DNA of 64,000 nt from Escherichia coli (GTDB lineage Bacteria; Pseudomonadota; Gammaproteobacteria; Enterobacterales; Enterobacteriaceae), in assembly GCF_001677475.2 (NCBI RefSeq), contig NZ_CP015229.1, one strand, 5' to 3'. The notes beneath the pieces were generated by a model. It worked only from the letters and a program-made list of their open reading frames with translations. It was not told where the DNA came from and searched no databases. Within the stretch, counting starts at the first letter, position 1, and the number at the start of each line of letters is the position of its first letter. Below, piece by piece: positions 3,839 through 61,147 of this stretch. The position numbers and the translations under genes were made by a program.

Positions 3839-3904
3839 AATTACCTCTCGCTTTTCTGCAATAAAAAAGGCGTCATTTCTGACGCCCGTTATGGGTTATA
3901 AAAT

Positions 3905-6900: not shown

Positions 6901-7606
6901 AATTACGACTCACCTGCTGGCTGCCGAACTGCTCCGAGTCCACCTGTACACCGACCAGTGCCGTGTTCGGGTAGCCCTGTTTCACATCGATGATTTCGGT
7001 GTATGACGACCAGAGCGTTTTGTTCTGCAGCTGGTCTGTAGTGCTGTCCGGCGTCATCCTGCGCATCCGGATACTGAACGGGCGCGGCGGCAGGTTACCC
7101 ACCACCACCGAGGCCAGATACTGTGAGGTGGTTTTTCCCTTAATGGTGATGTCTTTTTCCGTCACCCAGCCACCGTTACGTTGTATCTGAACCAGCAGGC
7201 GGACTTCCGACGGATTCCGGTCCCCCTTTGAGGTGGTTTCCACCAGTGCCTGCACACCGAAGGTAAAGCGCAGACGGTCGATGTTTGCAGACGTGATGGT
7301 CCGGGTAATCGGCGTGTCGTACTTCACTTCCGTACCCAGCACCGTCTCGGAGCCGGAGGATTCAAATCCCTCCGGCGGTGTCTGCTCCTGCTCACCTGCA
7401 CGGAACACCACCGTGACACCGGAGATATTGGTATTCCCCTCACTGTCCAGCACCGGCGTACTGTTCAGCAGCACGCTTTTTAATCCATCCACCGGACCTT
7501 CAACCGGCCCTTCGCTGATGGCATCGATCACACTCAGCAACTGCGTGGACTTCAGGTTATCCTTCGCTTCGCGCGGGGTATGCCCCTTACTGCTGCCTTT
7601 ACCCAT
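3905..7606 (-). CDS. J: Host specificity / tail tip central fibre protein J
   Basis: 1233-aa ORF; N-terminus [24 protein letters not shown]... resembles lambda J; follows I. Confidence 0.9.
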
Positions 7607-7666
7607 TCCTCACGCTCCATAAACGACAAAACCGCCCGCAGGCGGTTTCACATAAAACATTTTGCA

Positions 7667-8338
7667 TCAGCGACCAATCACCACAACCTGACCACCGTCC
7701 CCCTCGTCTGCCGTGCTGATCTCCTGAGAAGCCACCCGCGACCCCACGCGCATTTCACCGTACAGAACAGGCAGAACATTGCCCTGGGCAACCATGTTAT
7801 CCAGTGAGGAGAAATAGGTGTTCTGCTTACCGTTATCCGTTGTCTGTGTACGGGGAGTTCTGGCTTTCGGTGCCAGCATCTGCGCCACACCACCAAGTAC
7901 CATACTGGCACCGAGAGAAAACAGGATACCGGTCATACCACCGGCCCCAATGGCTGCCCCCCATGCTGCAAGGGTGGCTCCGGCAGTAAAGAATGATCCG
8001 GCAATGGCGGCAGCCCCCAGGACAATCTGGAATACGCCACCTGACTTGGCCCCGGCGACTCTGGGAACAATATGAATCACAGCGCCATCAGGCAGAGTCT
8101 CATGTAACTGCGCCGTTAACCCGGACGTGCTGACGTCCCGCCCGGCAATCCGTACCTGATACCAGCCGTCGCTCAGTTTCTGACGAAACGCCGGGATCTG
8201 CATGACCAGCGCCCGGATGGCTTCGGCCCCCGTTTTCACACGAAGGTCGATGCGGCGGCCAAATCGTTGTAAATCCCCGTAAAGGCAGATGCGTGCCATG
8301 CCCGGTGACGCCAGAGGGAGTGTGTGCGTCGCTGCCAT
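7667..8338 (-). CDS. I: Tail assembly protein I
   Basis: 223 aa, lambda I-like sequence with Gly/Ala-rich hydrophobic C-terminal half. Confidence 0.85.
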   Translation of the reverse strand: MAATHTLPLASPGMARICLYGDLQRFGRRIDLRVKTGAEAIRALVMQIPAFRQKLSDGWYQVRIAGRDVSTSGLTAQLHETLPDGAVIHIVPRVAGAKSGGVFQIVLGAAAIAGSFFTAGATLAAWGAAIGAGGMTGILFSLGASMVLGGVAQMLAPKARTPRTQTTDNGKQNTYFSSLDNMVAQGNVLPVLYGEMRVGSRVASQEISTADEGDGGQVVVIGR

Positions 8339-8979
8339 TTGTCGGTATACCTCTCTCGTTTGCTCAGTTGTTCAGGAATATGGTGCAGCAGCTCGCCGTC
8401 GCCGCAGTAAATGGCGGCATGATTCGGCACCGATGAACCAAAACAGCACAGCAGCACATCGCCCGGTTGTGCTGATGACAACGGCACCTGATACAGCCCT
8501 GTGGCCTCCAGATTATCCAGATAGAGATTCTGGCCGTTACGCCACCAGTCATCCCCGCGATGAAAATCCGGCATCTCAATCCCCGCCAGATGGTAAGCAT
8601 CCCGGAACAGCGTGTAACAGTCCGTCACCCCGTACTCAAAGCGTCGCCCGGTAAGATGTGGCACACAGCGGAACTTGTGAATCGCCCCCCGGCAGACCAG
8701 CCACCACGGCAAATCACTCTGCACCTGCAGCCGCCTGTCGGCCTCACTCAGCCAGGGCAGTCCACCGGGGTGGCTGTGGACCAGCGCCACAATCTCACCC
8801 TGCATTTCTGCCCGCAGCCAGTCCTCCGGCGACATCCGGAAATACGCCTCCGGCTCACCGGAGATATTCACGCAGGGAAGATACCTGTCTCCCTCCGGCG
8901 TTCTCACCACGAAGCCGCACGATTCCGCAGGCGAACACCGCCGGGCGTGCGCCAGAATCGCTGATTCAGTCTGTGTCAT
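8236..8979 (-). CDS. K: Tail assembly protein K (MPN/JAMM plus NlpC/P60-like); alternative start at 8835
   Basis: Starts MTQTESAILAHARR..., contains HSHPGG (JAMM-like) motif; overlaps I by ~100 nt. Confidence 0.8.
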   Translation of the reverse strand: MTQTESAILAHARRCSPAESCGFVVRTPEGDRYLPCVNISGEPEAYFRMSPEDWLRAEMQGEIVALVHSHPGGLPWLSEADRRLQVQSDLPWWLVCRGAIHKFRCVPHLTGRRFEYGVTDCYTLFRDAYHLAGIEMPDFHRGDDWWRNGQNLYLDNLEATGLYQVPLSSAQPGDVLLCCFGSSVPNHAAIYCGDGELLHHIPEQLSKRERYTDKWQRRTHSLWRHRAWHASAFTGIYNDLAAASTFV

Positions 8980-8989
8980 AAAATGGGAT

Positions 8990-9688
8990 TTACTGCGAAA
9001 GTTTGTTAATGGAAAGGAAGCCGCCAAAGTTGCCGACGTTATTGCGGTACTTACAACCGCTCAGGCATTTGCTGCATTTATCCTTCGTGATATCGGACGT
9101 TGGCTGGTCATATTCATCCGCGACCGCCGGACCGTGATAACCGCACTCATCGCCGCGATAGGTCCAGGTGCAGGTGTTGGCCAGCATGATACGTCCCGGA
9201 AAAACAGCGCCGTCCGTTTCCGTCGGCGTGGACAGTACAAAAGAGGCACTCACCGCGCTCAGTTCGCTGCACTGCTCAATGCGCCAGCGGCTGATCACCT
9301 CCTGCTCCGGATCGGCGTCACTGTTTCCGTTGACGAAGTTCACCGCATCCAGAAAACGGGCGTAAACCTTACGCCGGACCACCGTTCCGCCGACCAGACT
9401 CTGCAGATCTTCCGCCATCCCGGTGACCATACCGTACAGGTTAGAAACCGTCAGCGTGGGGCGCGTACTGGTGCCTTTGCCATTCAGTTCGAAACCACTC
9501 CCCTGAATGGGATACGCCTGATACTGTCGCCCCTGCCAGGTGACCGGCTCACCTTTTTCGTTCTGCTCATTACAGAAAAAATAACGTTCTCCACCAACCT
9601 CTGTCAGATCGATTTCCCAGAGCACCACGCTGGCCGACTGCTCCGCACGGGTGCATTCATTCAGTGTTTCCTGTCGGATATCCTGCAT
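8990..9688 (-). CDS. L: Minor tail protein L
   Basis: 232 aa, lambda L-like incl. C-terminal Cys cluster (CSKCLSGCKYRNN). Confidence 0.85.
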   Translation of the reverse strand: MQDIRQETLNECTRAEQSASVVLWEIDLTEVGGERYFFCNEQNEKGEPVTWQGRQYQAYPIQGSGFELNGKGTSTRPTLTVSNLYGMVTGMAEDLQSLVGGTVVRRKVYARFLDAVNFVNGNSDADPEQEVISRWRIEQCSELSAVSASFVLSTPTETDGAVFPGRIMLANTCTWTYRGDECGYHGPAVADEYDQPTSDITKDKCSKCLSGCKYRNNVGNFGGFLSINKLSQ

Positions 9689-10017
9689 CAGTTCACCACC
9701 TGTTCAAACTCTGCGCTGAACTCAACACGCAACATACTGACCCGCGACGACCATTTTGCGCAGGTCACCTTTATCTGCCGGTAGCCATAAGGCGGCGTCC
9801 ACAGAAAGGATTTCCAGCCCCCGTGCTCAGCCAGAAACGACTCAAGCGCCGTGGCCTCCCAACGGGGAACAGAAAGCGTCACGCTGTACGTTTTCAGGTC
9901 GGCATTCAGCCCGGCAGGCGCTCGCTGGGAATAGCCATCACCAAAGCGCACCTTTCTTACGGAAGGGGCCGAAGCCACATCCATACCGGGTTTCACTTTC
10001 CAGCGGAAGGTTTTCAT
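9688..10017 (-). CDS. M: Minor tail protein M
   Basis: 109 aa, lambda M-like; start overlaps H stop. Confidence 0.85.
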   Translation of the reverse strand: MKTFRWKVKPGMDVASAPSVRKVRFGDGYSQRAPAGLNADLKTYSVTLSVPRWEATALESFLAEHGGWKSFLWTPPYGYRQIKVTCAKWSSRVSMLRVEFSAEFEQVVN

Positions 10018-12635
10018 CGTCCACCTCCGGAGAACAGACCACCATCGCGCATCTGCCCGGTCACAACATCCATTGCCGCCTTACGGGCTACGTCATAAAC
10101 AGCCTTCAGTGCCTGTGGCCCTATCTGACCGTTCGTGCCGTCGTTGTTAATCACCACATGGTTATTCTGCTCAAACGTCCCGGACGCCTGCGACCGGCTG
10201 TCCGCCATGCTGCCCGGTGTACCGACATAACCGCCGGTGGCATAGCCGCGCATCAGCCGGTAAAGATTTCCCACGCCAATCCGGCTGGTTGCCTCCTTCG
10301 TGAAGACAAACTCACCACGGTGAACAATCCCCGCTGGCTCATATTTGCCGCCGGTTCCCGTAAATCCTCCGGTCGCAAAATGGAATTTCGCCGCAGCTGC
10401 CTGAATGGCTGTACCACCTGACGCTGATGAGCCGCCACCGGCAGCACCGCCAATGGCGCTGCCGATACTCCCGACAATTCCCACCATTGCCTGCTTAAGC
10501 AGAATTTCTGTCATCATGGACAGCACGGAACGGGTGAAGCTGCGCCAGTTCTGCTCACTGCCGGTCAGCATCGCCGCCATATTCTGCGCAATACCATCAA
10601 AGGTCTGCGTGGCAGCACTTTTAACCTGCGACATACTGTCCGTGGCAGTCTCTTTCCACTCGCTCCAGCCGGACCTGAGGCCTGCCATCCAGCTCCCGCG
10701 AAGCTGGTCTTCAGCTGCCCAGGTCTTTTTCTGCTCTGACATGACGTTATTCAGCGCCAGCGGATTATCGCCATACTGTTCCTTCAGGCGCTGTTCCGTG
10801 GCTTCCCGTTCTGCCTGCCGGTCAGTCAGCCCCCGGCTTTTCGCATCAATAGCGGCCCGTTTTGCCCGTTGCTGCTGTGCGAATTTATCCGCCTGCTGCG
10901 CCAGCGCGTTCAGGCGCTCCTGATACGTAACCTTGTCGCCAAGTGCAGCCAGCTGGCGTTTATACTCCAGCGTCTCATCTTTATGCGCCAGCAGGGATTT
11001 CTCCTGTGCAGACAGCTGGCGACGTTGCGCCGCCTCCTCCAGTACCGCGAACTGACTCTCCGCCTTCCACAAATCCCGGCGCTGCTGGCTGATTTTCTCA
11101 TTCGCTCCGGCATGCTTCTCCAGCGTCCGGAGTTCTGCCTGAAGCGTCAGCAGGGCAGCATGAGCACTGTCTTCCTGACGATCGCCCGCAGACACCTTCA
11201 CGCCGGACTGTTTCGGCTTTTTCAGCGTCGCTTCATAATCCTTTTTCGCCGCCGCCATCAGCGTGTTGTAATCTGCCTGCAGGATTTTCCCGTCTTTCAG
11301 TGCCTTATTCAGTTCTTCCTGACGGGCGGTATATTTCTCCAGTGGCGTCAGCAGGCGCTCATACGCCTTCTGCGCCTCTCCGGTATACTTCAGCTGTGAC
11401 GCCTCACGCTCAGCCCGGTCCCTTGCCACCAGTTCACCGGCTTTTTCCATATCCGACTGCAGCGTGGCTGCCGCCAGCCCCAGACGGGCATTTTCACGGT
11501 CATCCCATGCACCCTGAAGGTTGGCACGGAAAGAGGAGGTCTTTCCCCGGCTCTGACTCCGGCTCTGGTACCACTGCCATTTTTTATCCGCCTCATCAAA
11601 TGCCTTCTGCGCACTGGCGAGCATATCCGCTGAGGATTCAGGACGACCGATATCCAGGATGGCATCCCACATCAATTTGAATGCCTTCCCGGTTTTATCC
11701 GCCCAGGTTTCCAGCGTCCCCATGTTTTCTTTCAGGCGACGGGTCTGCTCATCAAAGCCTTTTGTGGCGATATCGTTCGCCGCCTGTAAGGCCCCTGCCT
11801 CATCACCCGAACGCTGCAGCTGCGCAACATACGCAATCTGCTCTGCCGTCACGTTACGGAACTGGCGCGCCATAGCCATCAGTCCCGACGTCGGGTCGGT
11901 GGTCAGCTTTCCAAAAGCCTCTGCAACCTTGTCCACTTCCACACCGGATACAGAAGCAAAACGCGCCACACTCTGGTTGATGGCATCAAACTGCTCACCA
12001 CCACGCACACCGGCATTCACCAGGGCTGCCAGTGACTCACTCGCCTGGTTAAACGTCAGCCCTGCTGCCTGTCCGGCTCTGGAGAGCGTCAGCATGCGAT
12101 CGGCAGTCAGTCCGGACTGATTACCGGAAAGAACAAGGGTTTTATTAAACGCTGAAAGCGTGGAATCCCCCTGGTACCAGGCATACGCCAGCGCACCTGT
12201 CGCCACCGCCAGCGAGGTGACCCCGACCATCGGCAGGGTGATCGCACCGGCAAGCCCCCTGAACATGGGGAGCATCCCGCCGAAGGCGTCCTTCACCTGA
12301 CCGCCCTGTTGCAGCAGAATAAGCCAGGGATTCTGACCACCGGCAAGCTGCGTGGCGATATCCGTAAACTGTGCAGGCAGGGTACGCATGGCCGCTTTAT
12401 ACTGCCCGACGGAAATCCCGGCTTTTTGTGCAGCCAGCGCCTGACGGCTCAGGCCCTGTTCAACGGCAGTGGCCTGTTTCTTAAAAGACTGGCTGACACG
12501 CCCGGCCATCAAATCCGCAAGGTCACTGGTTTCACCCAGTTCTTTCTTTACCCGTGCAGCCTCTTCAGAAAAACGGGTTGAATCCAGTGTAAGAACAGCT
12601 GTCAGATCGGCAAAATTACCCGCCATAGCGTACAC
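10014..12635 (-). CDS. H: Tail tape measure protein H
   Basis: 873 aa, Ala/Gln-rich helical protein between the G-T chaperone and M. Confidence 0.9.
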   Translation of the reverse strand: MYAMAGNFADLTAVLTLDSTRFSEEAARVKKELGETSDLADLMAGRVSQSFKKQATAVEQGLSRQALAAQKAGISVGQYKAAMRTLPAQFTDIATQLAGGQNPWLILLQQGGQVKDAFGGMLPMFRGLAGAITLPMVGVTSLAVATGALAYAWYQGDSTLSAFNKTLVLSGNQSGLTADRMLTLSRAGQAAGLTFNQASESLAALVNAGVRGGEQFDAINQSVARFASVSGVEVDKVAEAFGKLTTDPTSGLMAMARQFRNVTAEQIAYVAQLQRSGDEAGALQAANDIATKGFDEQTRRLKENMGTLETWADKTGKAFKLMWDAILDIGRPESSADMLASAQKAFDEADKKWQWYQSRSQSRGKTSSFRANLQGAWDDRENARLGLAAATLQSDMEKAGELVARDRAEREASQLKYTGEAQKAYERLLTPLEKYTARQEELNKALKDGKILQADYNTLMAAAKKDYEATLKKPKQSGVKVSAGDRQEDSAHAALLTLQAELRTLEKHAGANEKISQQRRDLWKAESQFAVLEEAAQRRQLSAQEKSLLAHKDETLEYKRQLAALGDKVTYQERLNALAQQADKFAQQQRAKRAAIDAKSRGLTDRQAEREATEQRLKEQYGDNPLALNNVMSEQKKTWAAEDQLRGSWMAGLRSGWSEWKETATDSMSQVKSAATQTFDGIAQNMAAMLTGSEQNWRSFTRSVLSMMTEILLKQAMVGIVGSIGSAIGGAAGGGSSASGGTAIQAAAAKFHFATGGFTGTGGKYEPAGIVHRGEFVFTKEATSRIGVGNLYRLMRGYATGGYVGTPGSMADSRSQASGTFEQNNHVVINNDGTNGQIGPQALKAVYDVARKAAMDVVTGQMRDGGLFSGGGR

Positions 12636-13069
12636 CTCCTGGAATTCCCTCAGACACCATCATCAGCATGGCTTCATCCTCTGTACTGCTCCGCATGTCA
12701 TCACTGACCGTAACGATTTCCTTCCCGTCAGCCCCAAAGCGGACACCACCAGAAAGTCCTGCCGCTTTCCGCATCAGCATATCGTCCTCATCCGGCATCT
12801 CCGTCTGCTCATCATCACGTCGGGGTGCAAGCAGACTGAAATCCGCCGGATGCATATCCGGATCGCAAAAAAACAGGCTGAGTACGGCGTACATCAGCCC
12901 GGAAAAATGCATATCCAGCTGGGTATCCTGAAAATAATGCGTGCGGTAAAAACGGTGCCAGTCGGCATATTCGGTGGATGTCATCCCGGCAAGCATGGTG
13001 CGCCAGTCAGGCCTCCCCATCTCACGCGCCAGTCTGAGGGCAAAATTCAGCTCGCCGTCGAAGACTTTC
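12616..13069 (-). CDS. T: T-frame extension of tail assembly chaperone (G-T fusion made by -1 frameshift)
   Basis: Open -1 frame downstream of slippery heptamer in G; continues ...GKVFDGELNFALRLAREMGRPDW... Confidence 0.8.
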
Positions 13070-13478
13070 CCGCAGAAAAATCATCATCAGTAAGCGCATT
13101 ATTTTTCGCCACTTCGGTGATATCCGTATCCACATGAACAGGCTCACTCATCCCGGACAGACGCAACACCACGTCTTCCGCCCGGGCAATGGCATCAGCA
13201 GGCCAGGTGGTCAGGACTTCCTGCTCAATCTGCATCACAGCCTCATTCATTGACGGTGACTCCGTTTTCTGTGGATGGTTATGCCACAGGGACATCGCCA
13301 CCAGAAACGCCCCGGTTCTGACAAGGTCTTCCACGCTCACCTGCAGGTTGCCGCTGGCTTCAGCCTCTTCTGCCCGCCGTTTCAGGAGGGCAAGATGCTC
13401 AATACGCTGCAGCGCAGACAGTTCGGAAAGGGTGACGGACACGCCGTTATATTCAAATTGTTCTGTTTTCAGAAACAT
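13047..13478 (-). CDS. G: Tail assembly chaperone G
   Basis: 143 aa starting MFLKTEQFEYNGVSVTLSELSALQRIEHLALLKRR (lambda G-like). Confidence 0.9.
   Translation of the reverse strand: MFLKTEQFEYNGVSVTLSELSALQRIEHLALLKRRAEEAEASGNLQVSVEDLVRTGAFLVAMSLWHNHPQKTESPSMNEAVMQIEQEVLTTWPADAIARAEDVVLRLSGMSEPVHVDTDITEVAKNNALTDDDFSAGKSSTAS
13064..13070 (-). other. Programmed -1 ribosomal frameshift slippery site G GGA AAG
   Basis: Heptamer GGGAAAG (minus strand) in codons GCG GGA AAG, 5 codons before the G stop, same as the lambda G-T site. Confidence 0.85.
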
Positions 13479-13498
13479 GCTTTTATCACTCCCTCAGC

Positions 13499-14248
13499 TT
13501 AACCCGCAACACCATCCGTGACGGTAATTTCTGCCACTGCCGCAAACTGACCATTTCCGGTCACCACAGGGATCTGCGCTTTACCGGCCGCAACACCTTT
13601 CACCGTGATCGTGTTCCCTTTCACGGTAATGGTGGCGAAATTCTGATTCGCTGACGTGGCGCGGAAGGTTTTATCCGTCGCCCCTTCCGGCTGAACGGCC
13701 ACAGTCAGGGTGATATTCTGACCTTTTGCCACATTGCCCGTTGATGGCGTCACGGTAATACCGGTGACCGGCGTGATGTCCCCCTGATCTTCCGCCAGCG
13801 ACGGACGGCCGATATTGGTGATCTTCACGGTACGGGTGATCACCTCTTTGGCGGTCACCGCTTTACCAATGGCGCTCACCCAGCCACGGAACACATCCAC
13901 CGTGCCGTTCGGGAAACGGATTTTGTAGGCCCGGCTCTCACTGCTGTCAAACCAGGCGATCAAATCGCGCTGCCCTTTCTCGCCGGGCTTCCAGGCCAGC
14001 GTAAAACTGGTATCCCCTGCTGATTTCTGCCCCTGCCCGGTGGATACCCAGTCCGCATCATCATCATCCAGATAGTTATCATCGTAGGATTCTGCCGTCA
14101 TCTCGCCGGGTGTCAGATCCTTTATTTTTGCCAGGCGCGTCCACTCATCGTCTGACAGCGGGTTTGCATAAGCATCACCAGTGCCGGTGTACACCCATAG
14201 TGTGGTGCCGGAACCTTTCACCGGCTCAAGAGGATTTGGTATTGCCAT
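13499..14248 (-). CDS. V: Major tail tube protein V with C-terminal Ig-like (Big_2) domain
   Basis: 249 aa, lambda V-like; C-terminal Ig-like repeat ([22 protein letters not shown]). Confidence 0.9.
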
Positions 14249-14255
14249 ATCGTCC

Positions 14256-14654
14256 TCACATCTCGTAGGTAATTTTCCACAGGAGATCTGCCGATCCCCA
14301 CATCATAAACTCATCATCCCGGCGGTAGTCATACCCCTGAAGATTCATCTTCAGCAGTAACGCACTGAGGCCGGGAACCGCCTCCAGCGCAGGAAGGATT
14401 TTCTCTTCCATCCACATATCCAGTGCCGAGTCCGATTCTTTTGCCCTGAGAAAAACTTCAATATGCAGTGTCGCCTCCCAGGTCCCCTCATCAACGAACT
14501 CGTCAGCAGCAGACGCATCAGTCAGGTAAACAGCAACAGCAGGTAGTTCCTGTTCATCAATAAAAACCGGGCGGCCGTCAAACCAGCTCACCCGCTCAGA
14601 AATATTTTCTTTCAGGGCAGACAGAACTGCCGCCCGTATTTCACGGTGTTTCAT
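14256..14654 (-). CDS. U: Tail terminator protein U
   Basis: 132 aa, lambda U-like ends ...[25 protein letters not shown]. Confidence 0.85.
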
Positions 14655-14666
14655 ACCCCCTCCCTG

Positions 14667-15290
14667 TCATTTTCTTTTCAGCACCAGGCGTAACTGATGC
14701 GTCATGGCTTTCATCATCTGCACCGGTAATTTTTCCCGGTACATCCGGTCCCGTTCACGTTCAAAGGTTTCTGCCAGCGGTCCGGCAGTCGGAATCTTCA
14801 CCACTTCGATCGGCAGACGGTGGCGTTTCGTCCTCCCTTTGCTGTCCGCACCGGTGGACGATGATGCCCACGGCATACGCTGCATCACATGCCACCGGCC
14901 ATTTTCCAGCCGGGTAATAAAAGCATTCGGGATCCGCCGTTTCCCGACAATCAGCACACTGCTACCGCCTTTCGTGACCGAACGCTCACCTTTCTTTCGC
15001 CGCTTTCTGCGGGAAAGCCGCACGCTGGCCGTCCCCAGTTTTATGGCGGGCAGATTACCGGTGTTGATGATGACCTTCGCATAAACCCTGTCTGCGCTGG
15101 CCCGTTGCAGGCGGATACGCTCACGGATGAGACGGCGTGGGACCGCCAGCTCCCGGGCAACCGAAGAGGCCGTTTTCGCGATGATGGACTCCGCCACACG
15201 GTTAAGCGTCGTGGCGGCAGCCCGGGGAACGGCACGGCGGTTAATCGCATCCAGATTTTTCATGGCCTGCGCCAGACCTTTTATCGCCAT
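14667..15290 (-). CDS. Z: Tail completion protein Z
   Basis: 207 aa starting MAIKGL..., basic RRKRRKKG patch, lambda Z-like. Confidence 0.8.
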   Translation of the reverse strand: MAIKGLAQAMKNLDAINRRAVPRAAATTLNRVAESIIAKTASSVARELAVPRRLIRERIRLQRASADRVYAKVIINTGNLPAIKLGTASVRLSRRKRRKKGERSVTKGGSSVLIVGKRRIPNAFITRLENGRWHVMQRMPWASSSTGADSKGRTKRHRLPIEVVKIPTAGPLAETFERERDRMYREKLPVQMMKAMTHQLRLVLKRK

Positions 15291-15292
15291 AC

Positions 15293-15574
15293 TTATTCCT
15301 GTTCGACAAAAATCCGGGGATTACCGTTGTACGTGTCATAACGGGTCACCACCAGTGAGCGACCGTCAAACACAACCACATCATCGCGGGCCGGCCGGTA
15401 CTGCGCTGAAAACACCACCAGTGACAACTGACTGCCGGAAAGCGCCCCCATATCCGCAGACTCATACTCCGGTATCACGTCATACACTACGCCGTTAATC
15501 TCCGCCGTTTTCCCCATCATGCGTACGGTCGCCAGGTCCATCCGGCTGCACATTCGCGCAAACAGATCAGGCAT
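15293..15574 (-). CDS. Head-tail connector protein (FII-like position)
   Basis: ORF upstream of Z; start chosen at MPDLFARM to avoid overlap with preceding gene. Confidence 0.55.
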   Translation of the reverse strand: MPDLFARMCSRMDLATVRMMGKTAEINGVVYDVIPEYESADMGALSGSQLSLVVFSAQYRPARDDVVVFDGRSLVVTRYDTYNGNPRIFVEQE

Positions 15575-15893
15575 TGATTTTAACCGCCACCGTGGTGGTG
15601 CCTGACGGCGCATGCTCCCATGCCATTCCCGCCGCCACTGCACCGTCTGCGGCAGGCTGCACAGTCCCGTCCTTCAGATAAACCGCCACACCGGCCTGAA
15701 TATCGTCGGCAGACTGTTTGGGCAGCAGGAACACGCCTTCGGCGAACCCGTCACCAGTCTCCCCGGCAGGAATATCGGTAATGGTCACTGCCACCATGCT
15801 GCCAACCACCACAGCGGCACCGCTCAGAATGGTCTGATCCCCGGCATTCACCAGCTCAATGGTGGTGCCGTCCTGTACAAAATTTTTAGCCAT
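15567..15893 (-). CDS. Small Gly/Ala-rich head-associated protein (DUF2190-like)
   Basis: 108 aa from MAKNFVQDGTT..., SD GGAGAG; directly downstream of capsid gene. Confidence 0.55.
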   Translation of the reverse strand: MAKNFVQDGTTIELVNAGDQTILSGAAVVVGSMVAVTITDIPAGETGDGFAEGVFLLPKQSADDIQAGVAVYLKDGTVQPAADGAVAAGMAWEHAPSGTTTVAVKINA

Positions 15894-15938
15894 AATGCTG
15901 TCTCTCCGGACAGCCCCCGGGGGGCTGTTTTCAGGCAT

Positions 15939-15957
15939 AAAAAAAGCCCTTTCGGGC
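15939..15957 (-). terminator. Rho-independent terminator directly after the capsid gene
   Basis: Minus strand GCCCGAAAGGGC hairpin followed by UUUUUUU, 22 nt after capsid stop; 17-bp palindrome CAGCCCCCGGGGGGCTG follows at 15911-15927. Confidence 0.65.
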
Positions 15958-15979
15958 AGTGATTGTGATAACGCGGTTA

Positions 15980-17959
15980 TCAGGCCACCGACGAACGCAC
16001 CAGCCCGCGCCAGTCAAGTGGTGCCACACCGGCATCAATACGGATTTTTGTGGCGATACCGTCAGTGGTGAAACCTTCCTGCTGGTCAATGTAGGGGGTG
16101 TCCACACCATCGAGCCAGGCCACTTCAATGGTGTCGGTGCCCTGTGCCGCAGCCAGGTACCAGGTTTTCGGATCTGCCGCATCAAGACGCGCTTCCGCAA
16201 TTACTTCGGCAAAGTTCTGGATCGGGTTAATGACACCGGCGTTTGCATCCGCCCCTTTCACACTGGCCGATTTGATGGTCTGGTTCGCCACCGTCTCCAG
16301 TGACACCGGCACCAGCATAAAGGCCGGACGGATATTCAGGGCGCGATCGCCTTCTTTCTGCAGGCGCATCATCTGACGGGCCGCATCCAGCCCGGAAACG
16401 GAGATCCCGCCGGTGGCTATATTTTTGTGATCGGTATGGAACAGGGCCTTACCGTCTGACAGTTTCGGGTTATCCGTCAGCACCTTGTAAACCAGGTCAC
16501 CAATCGTTGCCTTCGCCGCACGCCCCATCTTCATCGGCACGTCCACCAGCATATTCAGATCATCATTGATAATGGCCTGGCGGGTGATGGAGAAAATCTC
16601 CCCGTAGGTGGCCAGAGCAATGGTCTCCTTGCGATCTGAGGTGGTGATGTATTTATACTCCGCCCCCTCACGAACCTGACGCAGAGAACCAAAACCGCCC
16701 ATCCCCACGCGATACGCTGTTTTGAAGTCTGACAGGCGTCCCTTACGGGTCCACTTCTGGAAGGTTTCTTCTGATTCCTCCCAGCCCTGGATCAGCCCCT
16801 TGTTCGACACATCCAGCAGAATATTGCCAAAATCAGAGGTGCTGTGCGTCAGCGCCAGCCCGACCATCTGCATGGGGTTATAACTGGCCACCCCAATACC
16901 ACGCTCGGTCAGTGACATGCGAGCCCATTCACGCAGGGTCATCCCGTTATAGACATTATCCTTCTCGACATTTTCATATCCGGCACGGGCCAGCATCGCC
17001 TGGCGGATCCCGTCTCCCACAAAATTGCCGTTTCCGGCATAAATATGGGCCGGTGTGTTTTTGTTGGTCGGCGAGGACTCCTTGCCCATTTCATTCAGAA
17101 GGCGCTCGCGGGCCATTTCCAGCGAACAGTCAGGATCGGCCACACACTGCGCCTGAAGCGCCTGATAGCGCCCGCCAAACATGGCAAACAGATCGTTAAT
17201 GCCTGACATGCGGGCTTTCTGCTCAGCCATAACGCGGGCGCGAATGGTCGCCTCATCAGACACTGCCGGTACCGGTGATGGTTCTGTTACCGCCGGTGCA
17301 GGGATTGTCACTGTGGTATCACGCGGGGCACTGTTGTGTGGCTGCGTGATCATATTTCGGATGGATTCCGGCATCTTTTTAAATTCCTCTGTACGTGTTG
17401 ACTGAATACATGCCATTGCCTTAACGGCTGGCGTCACCTGGTCAGCAAATCCGTGTGCCAGACACTCGGCACCGGACATCCAGGTCTCATCCGCCAGCAT
17501 GGCGGCAATTTCATCGGTAGTTTTTCCGGTTTTCTGCGCATATACCGGCACCATAACCGACTCAAGTTTGTCCAGACGTTCGGCATAAGTGCGCATTTTC
17601 TCCGCATCACCACCGCTGATCCCCCAGGGTTTATGGATCATCATGAAGGCATTTTCCGGCATAATGACCGTGTCACCGGCCATCGCAATCAGGGATGCCA
17701 TCGAGGCGGCAACGCCATCCACATACACGGTAATGGCCGCACCGTGATTTTTCAGGGCATTAAAAATGGCGATGCCTTCAAAGACATCGCCACCCGGTGA
17801 GTTGATGTGGAGATTAATGTGGGTGATATCACCCAGGGCATTCATATCGCTGACAAACTGCTTCGCGGTGACGCCCCAGAAACCAATCTCGTCATAAATA
17901 TAAATATCCGCCTCACCCTGACCCCCCGCCTGCATCCTGAACCAGGATTTATTCTTCAT
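15980..17959 (-). CDS. Prohead protease (ClpP/S49-like) fused to major capsid protein
   Basis: N-terminal protease core (INSPGGDVFEGIAIFNAL...VDGVAASMASLIAMAGD) and long C-terminal capsid-like region in one ORF; start MKNKSWF placed just after portal stop. Confidence 0.7.
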   Translation of the reverse strand: MKNKSWFRMQAGGQGEADIYIYDEIGFWGVTAKQFVSDMNALGDITHINLHINSPGGDVFEGIAIFNALKNHGAAITVYVDGVAASMASLIAMAGDTVIMPENAFMMIHKPWGISGGDAEKMRTYAERLDKLESVMVPVYAQKTGKTTDEIAAMLADETWMSGAECLAHGFADQVTPAVKAMACIQSTRTEEFKKMPESIRNMITQPHNSAPRDTTVTIPAPAVTEPSPVPAVSDEATIRARVMAEQKARMSGINDLFAMFGGRYQALQAQCVADPDCSLEMARERLLNEMGKESSPTNKNTPAHIYAGNGNFVGDGIRQAMLARAGYENVEKDNVYNGMTLREWARMSLTERGIGVASYNPMQMVGLALTHSTSDFGNILLDVSNKGLIQGWEESEETFQKWTRKGRLSDFKTAYRVGMGGFGSLRQVREGAEYKYITTSDRKETIALATYGEIFSITRQAIINDDLNMLVDVPMKMGRAAKATIGDLVYKVLTDNPKLSDGKALFHTDHKNIATGGISVSGLDAARQMMRLQKEGDRALNIRPAFMLVPVSLETVANQTIKSASVKGADANAGVINPIQNFAEVIAEARLDAADPKTWYLAAAQGTDTIEVAWLDGVDTPYIDQQEGFTTDGIATKIRIDAGVAPLDWRGLVRSSVA

Positions 17960-19451
17960 GCTGGCTGTCGGTGGCCTGCTGACGCTGTTGTTCAGTTCCG
18001 GCACTGTTGCCTCCTTTGTCGTTGGCGGGGTCAGTATCAAAGACCAGCCCCAGCCTGCGGTTTTCCTCAGTTTCCGCCTTACGGCGACGTTTGACCTCAT
18101 CCGGGTTGCGCCCGCCTGCGCGGATCCAGTCGGATTCCGTCGCGGCACCACCCCGGATCTGTATCCGCCAGGCTTCAGCCTCCTTAACCGGGTCAATCCA
18201 CGGCATCACCGGACCGGAATACGTCGCGTTATATAGCGTCTTCATCTCCACATCCGCCGGAATTTTCAGCAGACCTGCCGCAACCACCATATTCAGCCAT
18301 GTCCGGTACACCGGGCGGGTTACCGCACCAATAAAACAGTCCTGCAGGATCAGGTAACCATCCGTGGACTCGACCAGCTCCTGCCGCTGGGCGCTGTAGG
18401 TGCCGTTATAGTTACGCGCCGCACTGGAAAAGCTCAGACGACTGCCAGCTGCCACTGCACGCAACTGGCCGTTGCGGAAAGTTTCAAGGTTGGGATTGGG
18501 ACGATCGGATTTGACCATGCCGATATCCTCGCCCTTGCGCAAATCGTCATAAATAATTCCCGGGGTGATATGGACTTCCCGCTCGGTTTCTTTGCTCCCC
18601 GGATCTTCATAGTCCTGTCCGTCACCTTTACGGATATACAGTCCCAGCGCCGCAGCAATACGCGCCGCTGTCAGTTCCGCATCCTCATACTCCTTAAGGG
18701 CACTGATCCGCATCAGCACCCCCGATAACATGGATGAGCCTCGCGTCTGATGCAGACGACGAGTGAACTTCAGGTGGATCATTTTTCCGGCGGCGATTTC
18801 TTTCGTATCACTCTGCCGACCACTGACCGGATAATTTTTATAAACCAGATATTTTTTCGGTCTGCCCCACTCATCAAGAAAAACCCCCTGATTCAGCCCG
18901 GCGGATTCATCACTGCGCATGGGAACAAAATCCGGCTCCATCGCTTCAAGCCAGAATGGCACTCCCGCCGTCCGTTCCAGACCGTTTCCCGCACCACTGA
19001 CCATCTGCGCAAACACTTCACCATCCCGCAGCCAGGTCCGCAGCAGTAAACGCTCAAGCACGGGACGGGTATACTGCCCTGTCACATCCGGACTCACGGA
19101 CCATTCAGCCCACAACCGGCGGATATCCGCAGCCAGCTCTGCCGCCATTTCCCCGTTTTTTCGTAATGGCTGAGGCTCCACAGTAATTCCTCTGGCACCA
19201 ATCACCCGCTCTTCAAGCTTGTCAAACACACCAATCACCAGGTCATGATTGATATCCAGAAAACGGGCCTGCTCCCGCAGGGAAACCGCGCCATATTTAC
19301 TGAGTTGATCAGCAGATCGATTTTCACGCCGGGCTTTATGTGTCCGGGTCGGTTTCACCGCCTCATAGGCCATGATTAACGCCCTTGAACGCAGTCTGGC
19401 CGCTTTCCAGCCTGGAGAGAACACGCCTATCACATCATCAATAATTGCCAT
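17949..19451 (-). CDS. Portal protein (lambda B-like)
   Basis: 500-aa ORF between W-like gene and protease-capsid gene. Confidence 0.8.
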   Translation of the reverse strand: MAIIDDVIGVFSPGWKAARLRSRALIMAYEAVKPTRTHKARRENRSADQLSKYGAVSLREQARFLDINHDLVIGVFDKLEERVIGARGITVEPQPLRKNGEMAAELAADIRRLWAEWSVSPDVTGQYTRPVLERLLLRTWLRDGEVFAQMVSGAGNGLERTAGVPFWLEAMEPDFVPMRSDESAGLNQGVFLDEWGRPKKYLVYKNYPVSGRQSDTKEIAAGKMIHLKFTRRLHQTRGSSMLSGVLMRISALKEYEDAELTAARIAAALGLYIRKGDGQDYEDPGSKETEREVHITPGIIYDDLRKGEDIGMVKSDRPNPNLETFRNGQLRAVAAGSRLSFSSAARNYNGTYSAQRQELVESTDGYLILQDCFIGAVTRPVYRTWLNMVVAAGLLKIPADVEMKTLYNATYSGPVMPWIDPVKEAEAWRIQIRGGAATESDWIRAGGRNPDEVKRRRKAETEENRRLGLVFDTDPANDKGGNSAGTEQQRQQATDSQHEE

Positions 19452-19687
19452 TAAAACCTCGCCAGTTTAAATCCCGGTTTTCCCCGCCTGCGGCTCACCA
19501 TCGCGGCAAGCCTGCGTTCCCACTCCTGACGTCCGGCGCGGATCTGAGAAAGGCTTTCCAGCGTCAGTTGCTGTCCGTTGAAGGTGACAGACTTCCCCTC
19601 CAGTACGGCCATTTCCGCTTCACGGTACCGCTGTATCATTTCTCTGGCTTCTTCTGTGCTCACAACCAGCCTCCTGATGTTATCCAT
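19451..19687 (-). CDS. W: Head-tail joining protein W-like
   Basis: 78 aa ending ...RRRGKPGFKLARF, similar to lambda W C-terminus. Confidence 0.65.
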   Translation of the reverse strand: MDNIRRLVVSTEEAREMIQRYREAEMAVLEGKSVTFNGQQLTLESLSQIRAGRQEWERRLAAMVSRRRGKPGFKLARF

Positions 19688-21783
19688 GGATTATCTTCCG
19701 CACGCTCCGTCCGCAGTTTTTTCTTCCGGCGACGGCGTTTTTCTGCCCCGGCCGTCAGTTCCGGGGATGCCGTTTCACCAGAACGCTCCTGCGGGAAGAC
19801 GAGCCACGTTTCCCGCTGTGCCCAGTCCGGTGCGGAGGGCCAGCGGATCTTTTCGTAACCATGCAGAACGGCAAGCGCATCCGCATAAACCAGCAGGTCA
19901 AACGCCTCGTTAGCGCCCCTGCCCGGTTTTCGCCATTTTCCGTCACTGCCGCGCTCTTCATAGGTCAGCTCATCGTAAAACCACCGCCCCAGCCAGTCGG
20001 GAAAGTGGATATAGTTCGGCCCCGGTGTGTCACGCCACAGGGCATTATTTACACGGTCCTTAAACGCATCCGTCTGAACCAGCCACAGCGCGACATCGCC
20101 ACTGGCTCTGGCACGGCGGGCACTTCTGCCGGTATTATCCGGGAAGGTACGGTTAATCAGCCTGTCACGGCGAAGACCATCCCCCTTGAACAGAAACACC
20201 CTGTTGCCCAGTCCGTCACTCCGGCAACGACGCCAGAAACGATAGGCGTTATCTGTCACCCCGGCTTCCCCTCCCGTATCCACCGCCATGGCCATCAGAC
20301 GCATGCGCACATCCGGATCAGAAGCCAGCGGCCATGTTTTATGGAACACATCCGTCAGCAACAAATCCCAGTCCTCCGGATATGCCGCCGGATCAACCGG
20401 CAGACTTTCACCGTTGGGACTGCAGCGCAGTGAATGCCGGATGTTGTAGCGATCAACAATCCAGCGTTCCCCCTGCTCTCCGTATCCGGTGATCTGCACA
20501 ACAAAACGGCGATTTTTACCGCCCTGTACGTCAACCGTTGCCTCAATAAAACGCACACCATCCGGCACAGATCGCCGGGGAAACGGCTCGGCACGCTGTT
20601 CAAGCAGTTCACTTTTACGCTGTTCCGTGGCTGAACGGGGCAGATAGGGTCGTCCGATATCGGTGTTCACCACCACTTTCAGGGTCTCTTCACTGCCGGT
20701 TCGCTCATACTCTTCTTCTGCCGCCAGCAGTTTAAAAATCAGTTGTTCCCAGGTCTGAAACGCCGCAGCCGGCCCCTCCATCCAGAATGACGCAATCCGG
20801 GAATTTCGTGGCGTTCCGGTGATACTGCCGTCCGCCGCCGCCCGTTCACCTTCACGAAGCCAGATCCCCTGGTTATTCAGTTCACGTTTCTGTTCCGGAG
20901 CAATCAGGCCGCAGCAGTGCGGACACATCAGGCGGGCCGCCTGCCCGGCAGCCACAAAATCAGGGTTATTCCGGTAACCGGTCATGTTATCCATCACCGG
21001 CTGAAAATATTCCCCACAGTGCGGACACGGCCAGTACCACCGACGGCGGTCTCCCCGGTTATACAGGGACAGGATCCCCGTTGTTGGGGGTGCCTCATGT
21101 GTGCCGCCACATCGCCATTTGGTGTCAGTGATATCCCGCCCGGGTGAACTCTCGACCAGGGTCATCCCGGAAGACATAAAGGTGGTGGTACGCTTTGATG
21201 CCAGGGTGAAGGCATCCCCTTCCCCGTCCACGTTTTCAGGGAAACGGTCATAATCCGTCAGCGCCACACGACGGTAATCCGAGGAGGAAAATACGGTGAT
21301 CGACGGCCAGCCAATCTTCAGGAAGGAGCCGTCAAGAAACATTTTATCGTGGACGTTGTTGTCATTACGGGAAGGACTGAGACGCTTACTGACCTCCGGG
21401 CTGTGACGAAACGTTCTGGAAAGACGCGTTCTGGAGTGTTCCCGCGCCTTGGTCTCGGTCATCTGCACCACCAGCATATCCGCCGGATCACAGATGATGC
21501 CGTACACAATCCAGCCATCAATCAGCCCTTCGGTTTTCCCGGTCCGCGCCGGTCCTACAAACACCACCGCGTCATATTCACGGGCTGATAATGTATTAAT
21601 GGGGTCAATCATATAGGGCGTCAGTGATGACTCCCACGGACCGGAAGTGTTGGCTCCCCGTGGTACCCGCATATAACGCCTGATGGCTTCCGCTACTGGT
21701 AACCGGCCAGGTGGGCGAAACAGCGAGGCCACTTCGCGCCAGATATCGGATGCGCGGCTATGGCTCTCGTTCACCTGATTCAC
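19660..21783 (-). CDS. Terminase large subunit (lambda A-like)
   Basis: 707 aa; Walker A-like VGPARTGKTEG, lambda A-like N-terminus, basic C-terminal tail. Confidence 0.85.
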   Translation of the reverse strand: MNQVNESHSRASDIWREVASLFRPPGRLPVAEAIRRYMRVPRGANTSGPWESSLTPYMIDPINTLSAREYDAVVFVGPARTGKTEGLIDGWIVYGIICDPADMLVVQMTETKAREHSRTRLSRTFRHSPEVSKRLSPSRNDNNVHDKMFLDGSFLKIGWPSITVFSSSDYRRVALTDYDRFPENVDGEGDAFTLASKRTTTFMSSGMTLVESSPGRDITDTKWRCGGTHEAPPTTGILSLYNRGDRRRWYWPCPHCGEYFQPVMDNMTGYRNNPDFVAAGQAARLMCPHCCGLIAPEQKRELNNQGIWLREGERAAADGSITGTPRNSRIASFWMEGPAAAFQTWEQLIFKLLAAEEEYERTGSEETLKVVVNTDIGRPYLPRSATEQRKSELLEQRAEPFPRRSVPDGVRFIEATVDVQGGKNRRFVVQITGYGEQGERWIVDRYNIRHSLRCSPNGESLPVDPAAYPEDWDLLLTDVFHKTWPLASDPDVRMRLMAMAVDTGGEAGVTDNAYRFWRRCRSDGLGNRVFLFKGDGLRRDRLINRTFPDNTGRSARRARASGDVALWLVQTDAFKDRVNNALWRDTPGPNYIHFPDWLGRWFYDELTYEERGSDGKWRKPGRGANEAFDLLVYADALAVLHGYEKIRWPSAPDWAQRETWLVFPQERSGETASPELTAGAEKRRRRKKKLRTERAEDNPWITSGGWL

Positions 21784-22256
21784 ATATCGGCCTCATCACA
21801 ACAGTCAATGACTGCCTTTTCCAGTGTGTCGCGGATCTCATCAACCACAATCTGCACTTCGTTCAGTTGTGATGCAGTCCACCCCCTGTCCCTCTCCAGC
21901 CTGTCAGGCCAGGTTTCCAGTACCTGAACTATCGCTTTCACCACGACAGAAAACGACCGCCTGACATCACTGACAGGGACAAGCTGAACAGTTTCATGCT
22001 GAAATTTAAGACGCTCGCGCTCGGACTGATACCATGCCTTGCGATCGTGTGGATTCATCTCCTCATCTTCGGTGGATGGTGTTTTTGCCAGCAGCGCAGT
22101 AATCAGGTCCGTCAGGAGATAAAGTTTTTTCTTCTCATTACTGCCCGGAGCAAGAGGAACATCCGCCATTCTTGCGGTAACGGTCTGCCGGTGCAGGCCT
22201 GAAAGGGCTGCCAGTTGATTAATATTTAACTTCATATTTTTCAGCTCGCCGTCCAT
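21780..22256 (-). CDS. Terminase small subunit (Nu1/Noh-like)
   Basis: 158 aa with N-terminal HTH (LNINQLAALSGLHRQTVTARM) immediately upstream of large subunit. Confidence 0.75.
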   Translation of the reverse strand: MDGELKNMKLNINQLAALSGLHRQTVTARMADVPLAPGSNEKKKLYLLTDLITALLAKTPSTEDEEMNPHDRKAWYQSERERLKFQHETVQLVPVSDVRRSFSVVVKAIVQVLETWPDRLERDRGWTASQLNEVQIVVDEIRDTLEKAVIDCCDEADM

Positions 22257-22379
22257 CTACGCCTCCTCCACATACCCCTCTGAACAGAAGTGATTCTGTT
22301 TTTTTGTAAAGAAATGCCGCCACACAAAGATGTCGAACAAAAATTGGCCACAACCATCATCTTTTTTGCATCAATTACA

Positions 22380-22520
22380 TTAAAAACAACAGTTTACATA
22401 CATGATGATGATGACGATAAAATCACAAAAATGCGCTTTTTTCCGCGCCGACCCGCCCCGTGTACAGGCCCACCCCGCCAGGAGGACCCGAAAAATGATA
22501 ATTGTTATCATTTTGTAATG
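22380..22520 (-). other. cos region (cosN/cosB) of the prophage
   Basis: Minus strand reads CGGGTCCT...ACGGGGCGGGTCGGCGCGG (22443-22459), resembling lambda cos ...ACGGGGCGGCGACCTCGCGG, upstream of the small terminase gene. Confidence 0.5.
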
Positions 22521-22718
22521 TGTTCCGGTTTCTTCCACCATCGCACCGGCCAGGCGACTATGAGGGGACAACGCCGCGCTCCGTTAACGCAGTAAACCCC
22601 GGTGTGTATCGTTTTTGATTATCCCCGCACACTCGCGCAGAGGAGTCTCCCGGTCGGGCTGCGGTCTCTGTTAATGCAGGAATACGGCGACAATACCGCG
22701 CATGGATAATAAGGTCAC

Positions 22719-28067: not shown

Positions 28068-28142
<75 letters not shown>

Positions 28143-28145
28143 ATA

Positions 28146-28221
<76 letters not shown>

Positions 28222-30340: not shown

Positions 30341-30494
30341 AAACACTCCTTTTATTTAATGATGAAGATTGATTATCAATATTTTCAATTCACCTGGCAA
30401 CATTTTGTTTACCTTCCATAAAATTCATGACCATCAAAAAAATAAACATATTAATTATAAACACAGAAAACATAACCCTCGTCACTATATATCC

Positions 30495-30869
30495 CTACCG
30501 CATATCCATATCTAACCGGACATTCAGAGCCATAAGCATTCCTTCAATAATACCTTCAGCTTTATAAAGTCTTTTACCAATAAGCCCATCAGAACATCTA
30601 TGCTTACGTGCAAGAGCCATAAATGTCATTCCACCTACGTAATAATCGACCAACAAATCGTGCAAATACTGATTATTCTTGTTTAATCGTGCCATACAGC
30701 CACAAATTATCATGGCGTCATCATCAGAACACTGAGGACGTGATTTCACTTTAGTTGGGATTAATCCTTTAAAACCAGCAGCTATCGAGGACCATGTTAC
30801 ATCTTCATGATTATTTGCTGCCCATGCTCCCCACCGCTCCATAACCAGCTGAATATCACGCAACATCAT
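30495..30869 (-). CDS. Q: Late antiterminator Q (QuuD-like)
   Basis: 124 aa, [34 protein letters not shown]...[16 protein letters not shown] matches the small Q family. Confidence 0.85.
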
Positions 30870-45254: not shown

Positions 45255-45344
45255 GATTGAATTTTGGCGGAGAGAGGGGGATTTGAACCCCCGGTGGAGT
45301 TGCCCCCACTCCGGTTTTCGAGACCGGTCCGTTCAGCCGCTCCG
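45255..45344 (-). tRNA. serU: tRNA-Ser (anticodon CGA), serU; prophage attachment site
   Basis: 90-nt tRNA with long variable arm, anticodon loop CUCGAAA, GGTTCAAATCC T-arm, CCA end. Confidence 0.9.
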
Positions 45345-45447
45345 GCATCTCTCCGTTCAGATGGTTGCCATGATGCCAGGAAATTTGGCATTTTAACAGT
45401 CCCTGTCCGTGCAATTTTGTTCAAGTGACGAGTTTGCGAGCAAAACG

Positions 45448-46345: not shown

Positions 46346-46421
46346 TCCTCTGTAGTTCAGTCGGTAGAACGGCGGACTGTTAATCCGTATGTCACTGGTT
46401 CGAGTCCAGTCAGAGGAGCCA
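46346..46421 (+). tRNA. asnT: tRNA-Asn (GUU)
   Basis: TCCTCTGTAGTTCAGTCGGTAGAACGGCGGACTGTTAATCCGT...GGTTCGAGTCC...CCA. Confidence 0.95.
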
Positions 46422-61071: not shown

Positions 61072-61147
61072 TGGCTCCTCTGACTGGACTCGAACCAGTG
61101 ACATACGGATTAACAGTCCGCCGTTCTACCGACTGAACTACAGAGGA
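61072..61147 (-). tRNA. asnW: tRNA-Asn (GUU)
   Basis: Reverse complement identical to the asnT sequence. Confidence 0.95.

Follow-up and report, generated by a model that had tools for sequence, protein, structure and literature searches.

A stretch of 64,000 nucleotides from Escherichia coli contig NZ_CP015229.1 (the window, to which all coordinates refer) includes a lambdoid prophage whose head genes lie on the minus strand. Directly downstream of the portal gene, one long gene encodes a ClpP-like protease, a Pro-rich linker, a helical middle domain and an HK97-fold major capsid domain as a single polypeptide, and it is followed by a junction that contains two hairpins and then by a head decoration gene. 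An earlier reading of the letters of this stretch (the initial annotation) had singled out the fused gene and the two hairpins, the latter as a strong terminator and a 17-bp palindrome. The features of the fused gene are listed below, with residues numbered according to the 659-amino-acid version of the protein that starts at ATG 17959, a convention kept throughout.

15980..18004, minus strand: fused prohead protease/scaffold-like/major capsid protein gene, 674 amino acids from the probable start GTG 18004
17420..17911, minus strand: ClpP-family (MEROPS S14-like) serine protease domain, residues ~17-180
17702-17704 and 17633-17635, minus strand: codons of the catalytic Ser86 and of His109, respectively
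17255..17374, minus strand: Pro-rich linker, predicted to be disordered, residues ~196-235
16925..17254, minus strand: all-helical middle domain, residues ~236-345
15983..16924, minus strand: HK97-fold major capsid domain, residues ~346-659, N-terminal boundary approximate

The fused head gene

The open reading frame (ORF) is open without interruption from 18196 to the TGA at 15980-15982, and 659 amino acids are counted from ATG 17959, the start chosen both by the NCBI Prokaryotic Genome Annotation Pipeline (PGAP) and by the initial annotation, whose single 659-residue ORF was borne out. The product matches the curated NCBIfam model NF045540 ('ClpP-like prohead protease/major capsid protein fusion protein', with the short name 'scaf_prot_MCP1' at NCBI) over its whole length: residues 17-657 align with model positions 2-651 of 652, and the score of 993 bits far exceeds the curated cut-off (475). 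PHROG 133 is matched over the full length of the protein. The Pfam domain CLP_protease covers residues 30-176 (1.5e-36) and Phage_capsid_4 covers residues 369-656 (1.8e-55).

The fold of the protein was predicted with AlphaFold; the model drew on 92 relatives (34-54% identity) and has a mean predicted local distance difference test score (pLDDT) of 90. The model contains a compact alpha/beta domain from residue 1 to ~180, a run of helices from 236 to ~395 and a C-terminal alpha/beta domain with a long helix at 468-496. The Gly56-Gly57 of the ClpP oxyanion turn, Ser86 and His109 are invariant in all 92 relatives, and at position 158, which is aligned with the catalytic Asp of ClpP, 96% of them have an acidic residue (Glu or Asp). 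The linker has pLDDT values below 50 at residues 210-233, and in the family alignment no other stretch is as poorly conserved or as rich in indels. The helices of the middle domain (236-259, 266-274, 280-293, 313-326 and 342-352) are modelled with high pLDDT; by analogy with Gifsy-2, HK97 and lambda, this domain may act as a scaffolding or delta-like domain. Two of the features by which membership of the family was judged, an N-terminal ClpP fold that retains the catalytic Ser and His and a C-terminal HK97-fold capsid domain in the same reading frame, are thus both present. The initial annotation had placed a ClpP-like protease core in the N-terminal part and a capsid-like region in the C-terminal part, and had proposed structure prediction of both halves as a check; the Pfam domains and the modelled folds agree with it on both counts.

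The start codon of the gene was reconsidered. An AAGGAGG lies 5 nt before GTG 18004, with a duplex energy of -11.6 kcal/mol against the 16S rRNA tail, and by the same measure this ribosome-binding site is far stronger than that of every other in-frame start. The AAGGAGG, the 5-nt spacing and the GTG are kept in LLS and mEp460, in neither of which is there an ATG equivalent to 17959, and the annotated N-terminus of the Gifsy-2 protein (MPEV) aligns with the VPEL of the GTG start. The strength of this site, its conservation in LLS and mEp460 and the MPEV/VPEL alignment together suggest that translation probably begins at GTG 18004 rather than at ATG 17959, giving a product of 674 amino acids and 73.3 kDa. 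In that case the fused gene begins inside the portal gene, and the two share 56 nt (17949-18004). The start given by PGAP, in E. coli N96 as well, probably trims 15 codons from the gene, and databases contain versions of both ~659 and ~674 amino acids.

The gene is widespread. The copy in E. coli N96 is 99.9% identical and bears the NF045540 product name in PGAP, as do the best-matching E. coli copies (95-99.9% identical), and a 2.75-kb query spanning the gene matched 2069 of 5426 complete E. coli genomes. Full-length relatives were found in 74 phage records (E<=1e-100), and include CP-1639, VT1-Sakai and many Shiga toxin 2 (Stx2) phages at 96-99% identity, mEp460, cdtI, mEp213 and LLS at about 75% (75.5% for LLS gene 5), Fels-1 at 62%, Gifsy-2 at about 60-61% and ~30 Pseudomonas phages at 57%. 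At least 150 clusters at 50% identity were matched in an exhaustive HMMER scan, most of them as one collinear, near-full-length stretch. The cluster of a Salmonella homologue carries generic names only. In the Stx1 phage VT1-Sakai (AP000400.1, 22758-26822) the homologous fused capsid gene is cut in two pieces by an IS629 insertion, and the head gene of that phage is therefore inactivated.

The junction with the decoration gene

The features of the junction, and the neighbouring and regulatory genes that bear on it, are as follows.

15966..15982, minus strand: small hairpin TGATAAC-CGC-GTTATCA over the tandem stops TGA TAA (7 bp, ~-5 kcal/mol, z -0.3)
15939..15957, minus strand: hairpin 1, GCCC-GAAA-GGGC followed by T7, minimal and intrinsic-terminator-like (stem-loop 15946-15957, T7 15939-15945)
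15928..15938, minus strand: single-stranded linker ATGCCTGAAAA, with the family consensus AT(A/G)CCTGAAA(N) from alignments
15911..15927, minus strand: hairpin 2 (the '17-bp palindrome'), stem CAGCCCC/GGGGCTG with a short loop, -16.3 kcal/mol
15567..15907, minus strand: head decoration (cement) protein gene (GGAGAG 15902-15907, ATG 15893, coding sequence 15567-15893, 108 amino acids)
17949..19451, minus strand: lambda-family portal gene directly upstream of the fused gene (Phage_portal_2 6e-81, TIGR01539 1.8e-132)
30495..30869, minus strand: Q-family late antiterminator gene of the same prophage (Pfam Phage_antitermQ 3.1e-51)

Hairpin 1 begins 22 nt past the stop codon of the fused gene, with its T7 directly 3' of the stem, and both its position and that of the perfect palindrome had been given exactly by the initial annotation. 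The stem has 4 bp (-7.9 kcal/mol, z -2.4). Of two sequence properties expected of an intrinsic terminator, a U run 3' of the stem, on the transcribed strand and past the stop codon, is present, but a G+C-rich stem of at least ~5 bp is not, and a consensus terminator scanner with a minimum stem of 5 bp did not report the hairpin. The description of hairpin 1 as a strong, 'canonical' terminator thus held for the U-tract after the stop and failed for its strength.

The junction was compared across 80 IMG/VR loci (23 distinct variants), mEp460, LLS, CP-1639, a Klebsiella phage, Gifsy-2, Fels-1 and Providencia PSTCR8lys. The order of its elements is conserved: GCCC-(4-nt loop)-GGGC, U6-8, A/G-U-N-C-C-U-G-A-A-A-N, a G+C-rich hairpin, 3-5 nt, GGAG and the start codon of the decoration gene. 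The stem and U-tract of hairpin 1 are kept in nearly all of the 80 IMG/VR loci, with a U-run of 6-8 and a single variant, GGGT, in the 3' arm. Hairpin 1 is also found in the mEp460, LLS, Klebsiella, Gifsy-2, Fels-1 and Providencia phages, and in the mEp460 record it is labelled 'rho-independent terminator'. Across the whole set of relatives its loop has eight different sequences. The small hairpin over the stop codons is present in the closest relatives only, being absent from LLS, mEp460 and Gifsy-2, and is probably incidental.

Hairpin 2 is placed 3 nt upstream of the ribosome-binding site of the decoration gene, and in the window it can be written as an 8+1+8 dyad, CAGCCCCC-C-GGGGGCTG, at 15911-15927. 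Its loop differs in sequence and length even between near-identical prophages (ACA, ACT, GCA, GTC, TGC, GAAA, GCAA, TGAAC and others are found across relatives), and the commonest close allele is CAGCCCC-ACA-GGGGCTG. The stem is swapped, at the same position, for CCGGCAC/GTGCCGG in Gifsy-2, CCGG.CA/TG.CCGG in Fels-1 and CCGGCT/AGCCGG in Providencia PSTCR8lys. Both sides have changed in 4 of the 7 pairs in an alignment of 11 sequences, in which 95% of cells are paired; the observed values were reached by none of 500 shuffles, and pairing collapsed when the 3' partners were slid by 1-3 columns. Hairpin 2 was counted as real because it is conserved as a hairpin in relatives. The palindrome noted initially is thus present as a dyad in the window but does not stand as a fixed dyad site; judged from the alleles compared, the perfect 17-bp dyad is an accident of one of them.

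The gene that follows hairpin 2 was examined, since the initial annotation had stated that there was no separate decoration gene and had suggested readthrough into the tail genes. The statement was wrong, and the next gene is not a tail gene. The product of 15567-15893 matches Pfam PF09956 Phage_cement_2 (69.4 bits against a cut-off of 24, 3.9e-19) and PHROG 122 'head decoration' (2.7e-36), is named 'DUF2190 family protein' in PGAP and is 50% identical to the Gifsy-2 neighbour STM1034. After the fused gene come this decoration gene, a PF13856 gene and only then the lambda-like tail genes Z, U and V, which start two genes further on. In the mechanical ORF list the decoration gene appears with 123 amino acids, counted from an in-frame ATG at 15938, within the tail of the terminator U-tract; relatives have ATA or GTA there instead, and on this comparison the real start is ATG 15893, for a protein of 108 amino acids. 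Several Stx2 phage records carry the label 'membrane protein' at this position.

A scan of 15500-18300 against Rfam at E<=1 returned no family. The 76-nt junction was also searched by BLAST against all phage records, and found no match beyond its closest relatives, all of them E. coli Stx-type phages with this type of head, apart from one 24-nt hit at chance level; because the matches were confined to one head type, the junction module is not a mobile cassette common to other head types. Within the window, the 3' arm and U-run of hairpin 1 are able to pair with GAAAACAGCCC. A classical attenuator was considered on this basis and rejected: the partner lies downstream of the U-tract and is unable to prevent termination, and the cross-pairing is impossible in Gifsy-2, where the stem of hairpin 2 is different. 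An alternative hairpin, GCUGUC/GACAGC, would hold the ribosome-binding site in its loop; it occurs in the closest relatives only and not in LLS or L066.

Interpretation and rival explanations

The best explanation for these observations, and one that very probably holds, is that the ORF is an ordinary example of the tripartite head genes of Gifsy-2 type found in lambdoid prophages, comprised of a protease, a Pro-rich linker, a helical scaffold-like domain and an HK97-fold capsid domain, and that the junction is a conserved two-part RNA module. Several points weigh against this. The stem of hairpin 1 is nearly invariant and therefore provides no covariation evidence for that hairpin. The covariation of hairpin 2 is supportive, not conclusive, as it involves few independent events, essentially E. 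coli/Klebsiella versus Salmonella/Providencia. Pseudomonas relatives have a single larger terminator-like hairpin and lack hairpin 2, so that the fused-gene design can do without the two-part module. A lineage-specific internal start at Met196, with a weak GAGG 10 nt upstream, is also possible.

That start would be the basis of nested expression like that of lambda C/Nu3, in which an internal in-frame start yields a scaffold-capsid protein without the protease as the main component of the shell, and only a minority of subunits carry the protease. The ATG of Met196 (17374) does lie just past the protease domain, with a duplex energy of -6.0 kcal/mol for its GAGG, and on a rough estimate from general knowledge a shell of full-length subunits only would enclose several hundred protease domains and be crowded. 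However, most of the 92 relatives have V, A, I or P at position 196, residues 180-360 contain no Met that is conserved across them, and no internal site comes near the strength of the one before GTG 18004 (-11.6 kcal/mol). A conserved internal start with a ribosome-binding site, as in lambda C/Nu3, was not found, the Met196 codon being lineage-specific and its site weak, and nested expression is accordingly improbable. An artefact is far less probable still and can be given almost no credence. It would require either that a frameshift joins two genes or that the ORF is a protease/scaffold gene only, with the capsid gene elsewhere, and it draws on the many phage records that name the gene 'protease/scaffold protein', 'Clp protease' or 'Nu3'. 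Against it, the single frame is unbroken in the 74 phage records, in some 2000 complete genomes of E. coli and in the divergent clusters, of which there are at least 150, and a joining frameshift, which the initial annotation had raised as a way in which two separate genes might be hidden, is therefore excluded. The C-terminal 300 residues have the HK97 capsid fold, and passages in citing papers describe the Gifsy-2 genes as fused. All of the genes between terminase and tail are accounted for and none of them is a second capsid gene; the earlier statement that protease, scaffold and capsid genes are not separate was correct in these respects, and went astray only in extending to the decoration gene.

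In the model of the initial annotation, hairpin 1 and its T7 are a strong terminator that, with the palindrome, attenuates readthrough and holds the downstream (tail) genes below the level of the capsid. The conservation of hairpin 1 and its U6-8 in nearly every enterobacterial relative examined is consistent with such a role, as are the terminator annotated in the mEp460 record, a terminator feature that also lies under the match in phage Ayreon, the stronger terminator-like hairpin at the same place in Pseudomonas relatives and the general knowledge that stem-loops are common after major capsid genes in phage late operons. This model is nevertheless rather doubtful. The 4-bp stem (-7.9 kcal/mol) failed the consensus scan, hairpin 2 has no U-run on the coding strand, and the next gene encodes not a tail protein but a decoration protein, which is expected at ~1:1 with the capsid protein. 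The prophage also encodes a Q antiterminator. The Q gene shares its strand with the lysis and head genes and lies upstream of them, and its counterpart in the homologous N96 prophage is annotated 'antiterminator Q family protein'. In lambdoid phages, intrinsic terminators are read through by Q-modified RNA polymerase. Because the Q antiterminator is present and the decoration protein is needed in capsid-like amounts, sharp attenuation is unlikely, and most late transcription probably reads through the junction, the operon being driven by Q. The decoration gene, the 4-bp stem and Q together weaken the claim of attenuated readthrough into the tail genes.

Two other readings of the palindrome are that a dimeric protein binds it as DNA, whether as an operator, a restriction-like site or a packaging site, and that it is a terminator hairpin of the antisense strand. 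The perfect 8+1+8 dyad would suit either, and on the plus strand the palindrome is followed by TTTT and is listed there as terminator-like by the scanner. Such a role is nonetheless highly improbable. The centre of the dyad varies in length and sequence even between near-identical relatives, and in Gifsy-2, Fels-1 and Providencia its arms give way to unrelated sequences that are again complementary to each other; such loops and stems fit a hairpin, not a sequence-specific site. Perfect palindromes with 8-bp arms are, moreover, not rare, with 2-5 per spacing class in the 64 kb of the window. An antisense-strand terminator was rejected, as the T-run is not conserved and is down to 3 T in mEp460, LLS and Gifsy-2.

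The junction is best read as a conserved RNA module, and it is more likely that this module tunes mRNA processing, stability or translation than that it sharply attenuates the downstream genes. One tentative proposal, which has some chance of being correct, is that the hairpin with U7, the invariant CCUGAAA linker and the co-varying hairpin beside the ribosome-binding site form a dedicated RNA element, a processing or stability mark or a translational control, that sets the capsid : decoration : downstream ratio in the Q-antiterminated late operons of Gifsy-2-type heads. We know of no characterization of a two-hairpin intercistronic module of this kind. It is the sole uncharacterized element of the locus, and a minor question.

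By homology with Gifsy-2, HK97 and lambda, several hundred full-length copies of the fused protein would co-assemble on the portal to form a T=7 procapsid that holds their protease and scaffold parts, still tethered, in its interior. Crowding may then activate the Ser86/His109 protease, which would remove approximately the N-terminal 300-350 residues and leave an HK97-fold capsid subunit of ~33-39 kDa that expands on DNA packaging, the shell being cemented by trimers of the separately encoded DUF2190 decoration protein (15567-15893). In the capsid message, hairpin 1 with its U7 might serve as a weak or leaky intrinsic terminator or as a 3'-end stabilizer, while hairpin 2, directly upstream of the ribosome-binding site, could shield or insulate the decoration cistron as a 5' hairpin. 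The A/U-rich linker between the two hairpins may be cleaved, and that ATGCCTGAAAA is a target of RNase E is a guess only.

Prophage context and known systems

The gene after the decoration gene, at 15293-15574 on the minus strand, matches Pfam PF13856 'Gifsy-2' and occupies the head-tail joining position; its LLS counterpart is annotated 'head-tail joining'. PGAP and several phage records name it 'DNA breaking-rejoining protein', which looks like a propagated misnomer. Against E. coli N96 (NZ_CM169999.1), only the structural region at 3242-22703 is collinear (99.1%); in the lysis, Q and early regions the match is mosaic, with gaps and 89-98% identity, and identity of the window with N96 was rejected for this reason. 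The N96 copy has two IS66 elements that are missing from the corresponding places in the window. Genes for tRNA-Gly(tcc) and tRNA-Thr(tgt) lie in the prophage at 28068-28221 (minus strand), between the Q gene and the lysis cassette; tRNA and moron cargo in Stx-like lambdoid prophages is usually located downstream of the late promoter, as it is here. An ORF at 29522-30346 (minus strand), just downstream of Q, has a CAAX-protease-like (Rce1-like) domain, and its N96 homologue is named 'lysostaphin resistance A-like protein' by PGAP; it is likely to be a moron gene. To the right of the prophage are genes for tRNA-Ser(cga) (45265-45354) and three tRNA-Asn(gtt) (46346-46421, 61072-61147 and 62896-62971). 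The tRNA-Ser gene, near the end of the similarity to the N96 prophage, could be the integration site.

The importance of the locus beyond correct annotation is small. Members of the family are very frequent in prophages of enterobacteria and Pseudomonas, Stx1 and Stx2 phages among them. Correct annotation does matter in that the capsid genes of such prophages can be missed when records say only 'Clp protease', 'scaffold' or 'Nu3', and neighbours labelled 'membrane protein' or 'DNA breaking-rejoining protein' add to the misannotation. The two-hairpin junction poses a small, testable question, namely how expression ratios are set inside an antiterminated late operon. A functional analogy is E. 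coli papBA, in which intercistronic stem-loops set differential mRNA stability within an operon. The layout of the junction is papBA-like, with a 3' hairpin that ends the message for an abundant protein, an A/U-rich linker and a stable 5' hairpin before the ribosome-binding site, and the likeness is one of function only.

With HK97 gp4/gp5 the fused protein shares an HK97-fold shell protein with an N-terminal scaffolding part that is cut off by a prohead protease after assembly, a pathway that is established in HK97 and predicted here by homology. In HK97 the protease is a separate gene of another family, not ClpP-like, and the delta scaffolding domain is fused to the capsid protein. The HK97 shell is stabilized by covalent cross-links and has no decoration protein, whereas in the window a decoration gene follows the capsid gene. 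The prophage resembles the lambda C/Nu3, D and E system in its terminase and portal, which are of the lambda family, in its lambda-like tail genes and in the dependence of late transcription on Q, and the lambda protease is physically linked to the scaffold, as in the fused gene. To our knowledge, lambda gpC is not of ClpP type. In lambda the capsid protein has a gene of its own, E, downstream of D, and the decoration protein of the window is of the DUF2190/Phage_cement_2 type, with no match to gpD in the Pfam search. Lambda gpD sits at the 3-fold axes, and in a passage of PMC8538268 Gifsy-2 is likewise placed among the phages with a trimeric decoration protein at these axes.

The closest studied system is the tripartite capsid gene of Gifsy-2 (NC_010393, STM1034.3n). 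Its product has the same order of ClpP-like protease, middle domain and major capsid protein, is ~60% identical and collinear (residues 1-673 against 1-696) and is annotated 'bacteriophage Clp protease involved in capsid processing'. The neighbourhood is the same, with a lambda-type terminase, a small ORF, the portal, the fused gene, the DUF2190 gene, the PF13856 gene and Z, U and V, and so is the layout of the junction: a GCCC/GGGC hairpin, U7, ATACCTGAAAT, a second hairpin and the ribosome-binding site. The gene in the window differs in belonging to an E. coli lineage closest to CP-1639, VT1-Sakai and the Stx2 phages (96-99%), in its probable GTG start where Gifsy-2 has ATG and in the sequence of the hairpin 2 stem. 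The Gifsy-2 protein is said to consist of a ClpP-like N-terminus, a C-terminal capsid protein and, between them, a central domain of ~200 residues that may act in scaffolding; its capsids are reportedly T=7 and could be modelled with HK97 gp5 and lambda gpD. A passage of PMC12315714 describes the Gifsy-2 genes as fused, citing Effantin et al. 2010 (Virology 402:355), and assigns the heads of mEp213 and LLS to that type; PMC8538268 cites the same study. From NF045540 and PHROG 133 the gene shows no difference that matters, apart from the probable error in the PGAP start. The fused protease-scaffold-capsid arrangement is already known, both as a curated family and through its studied prototype, Gifsy-2.

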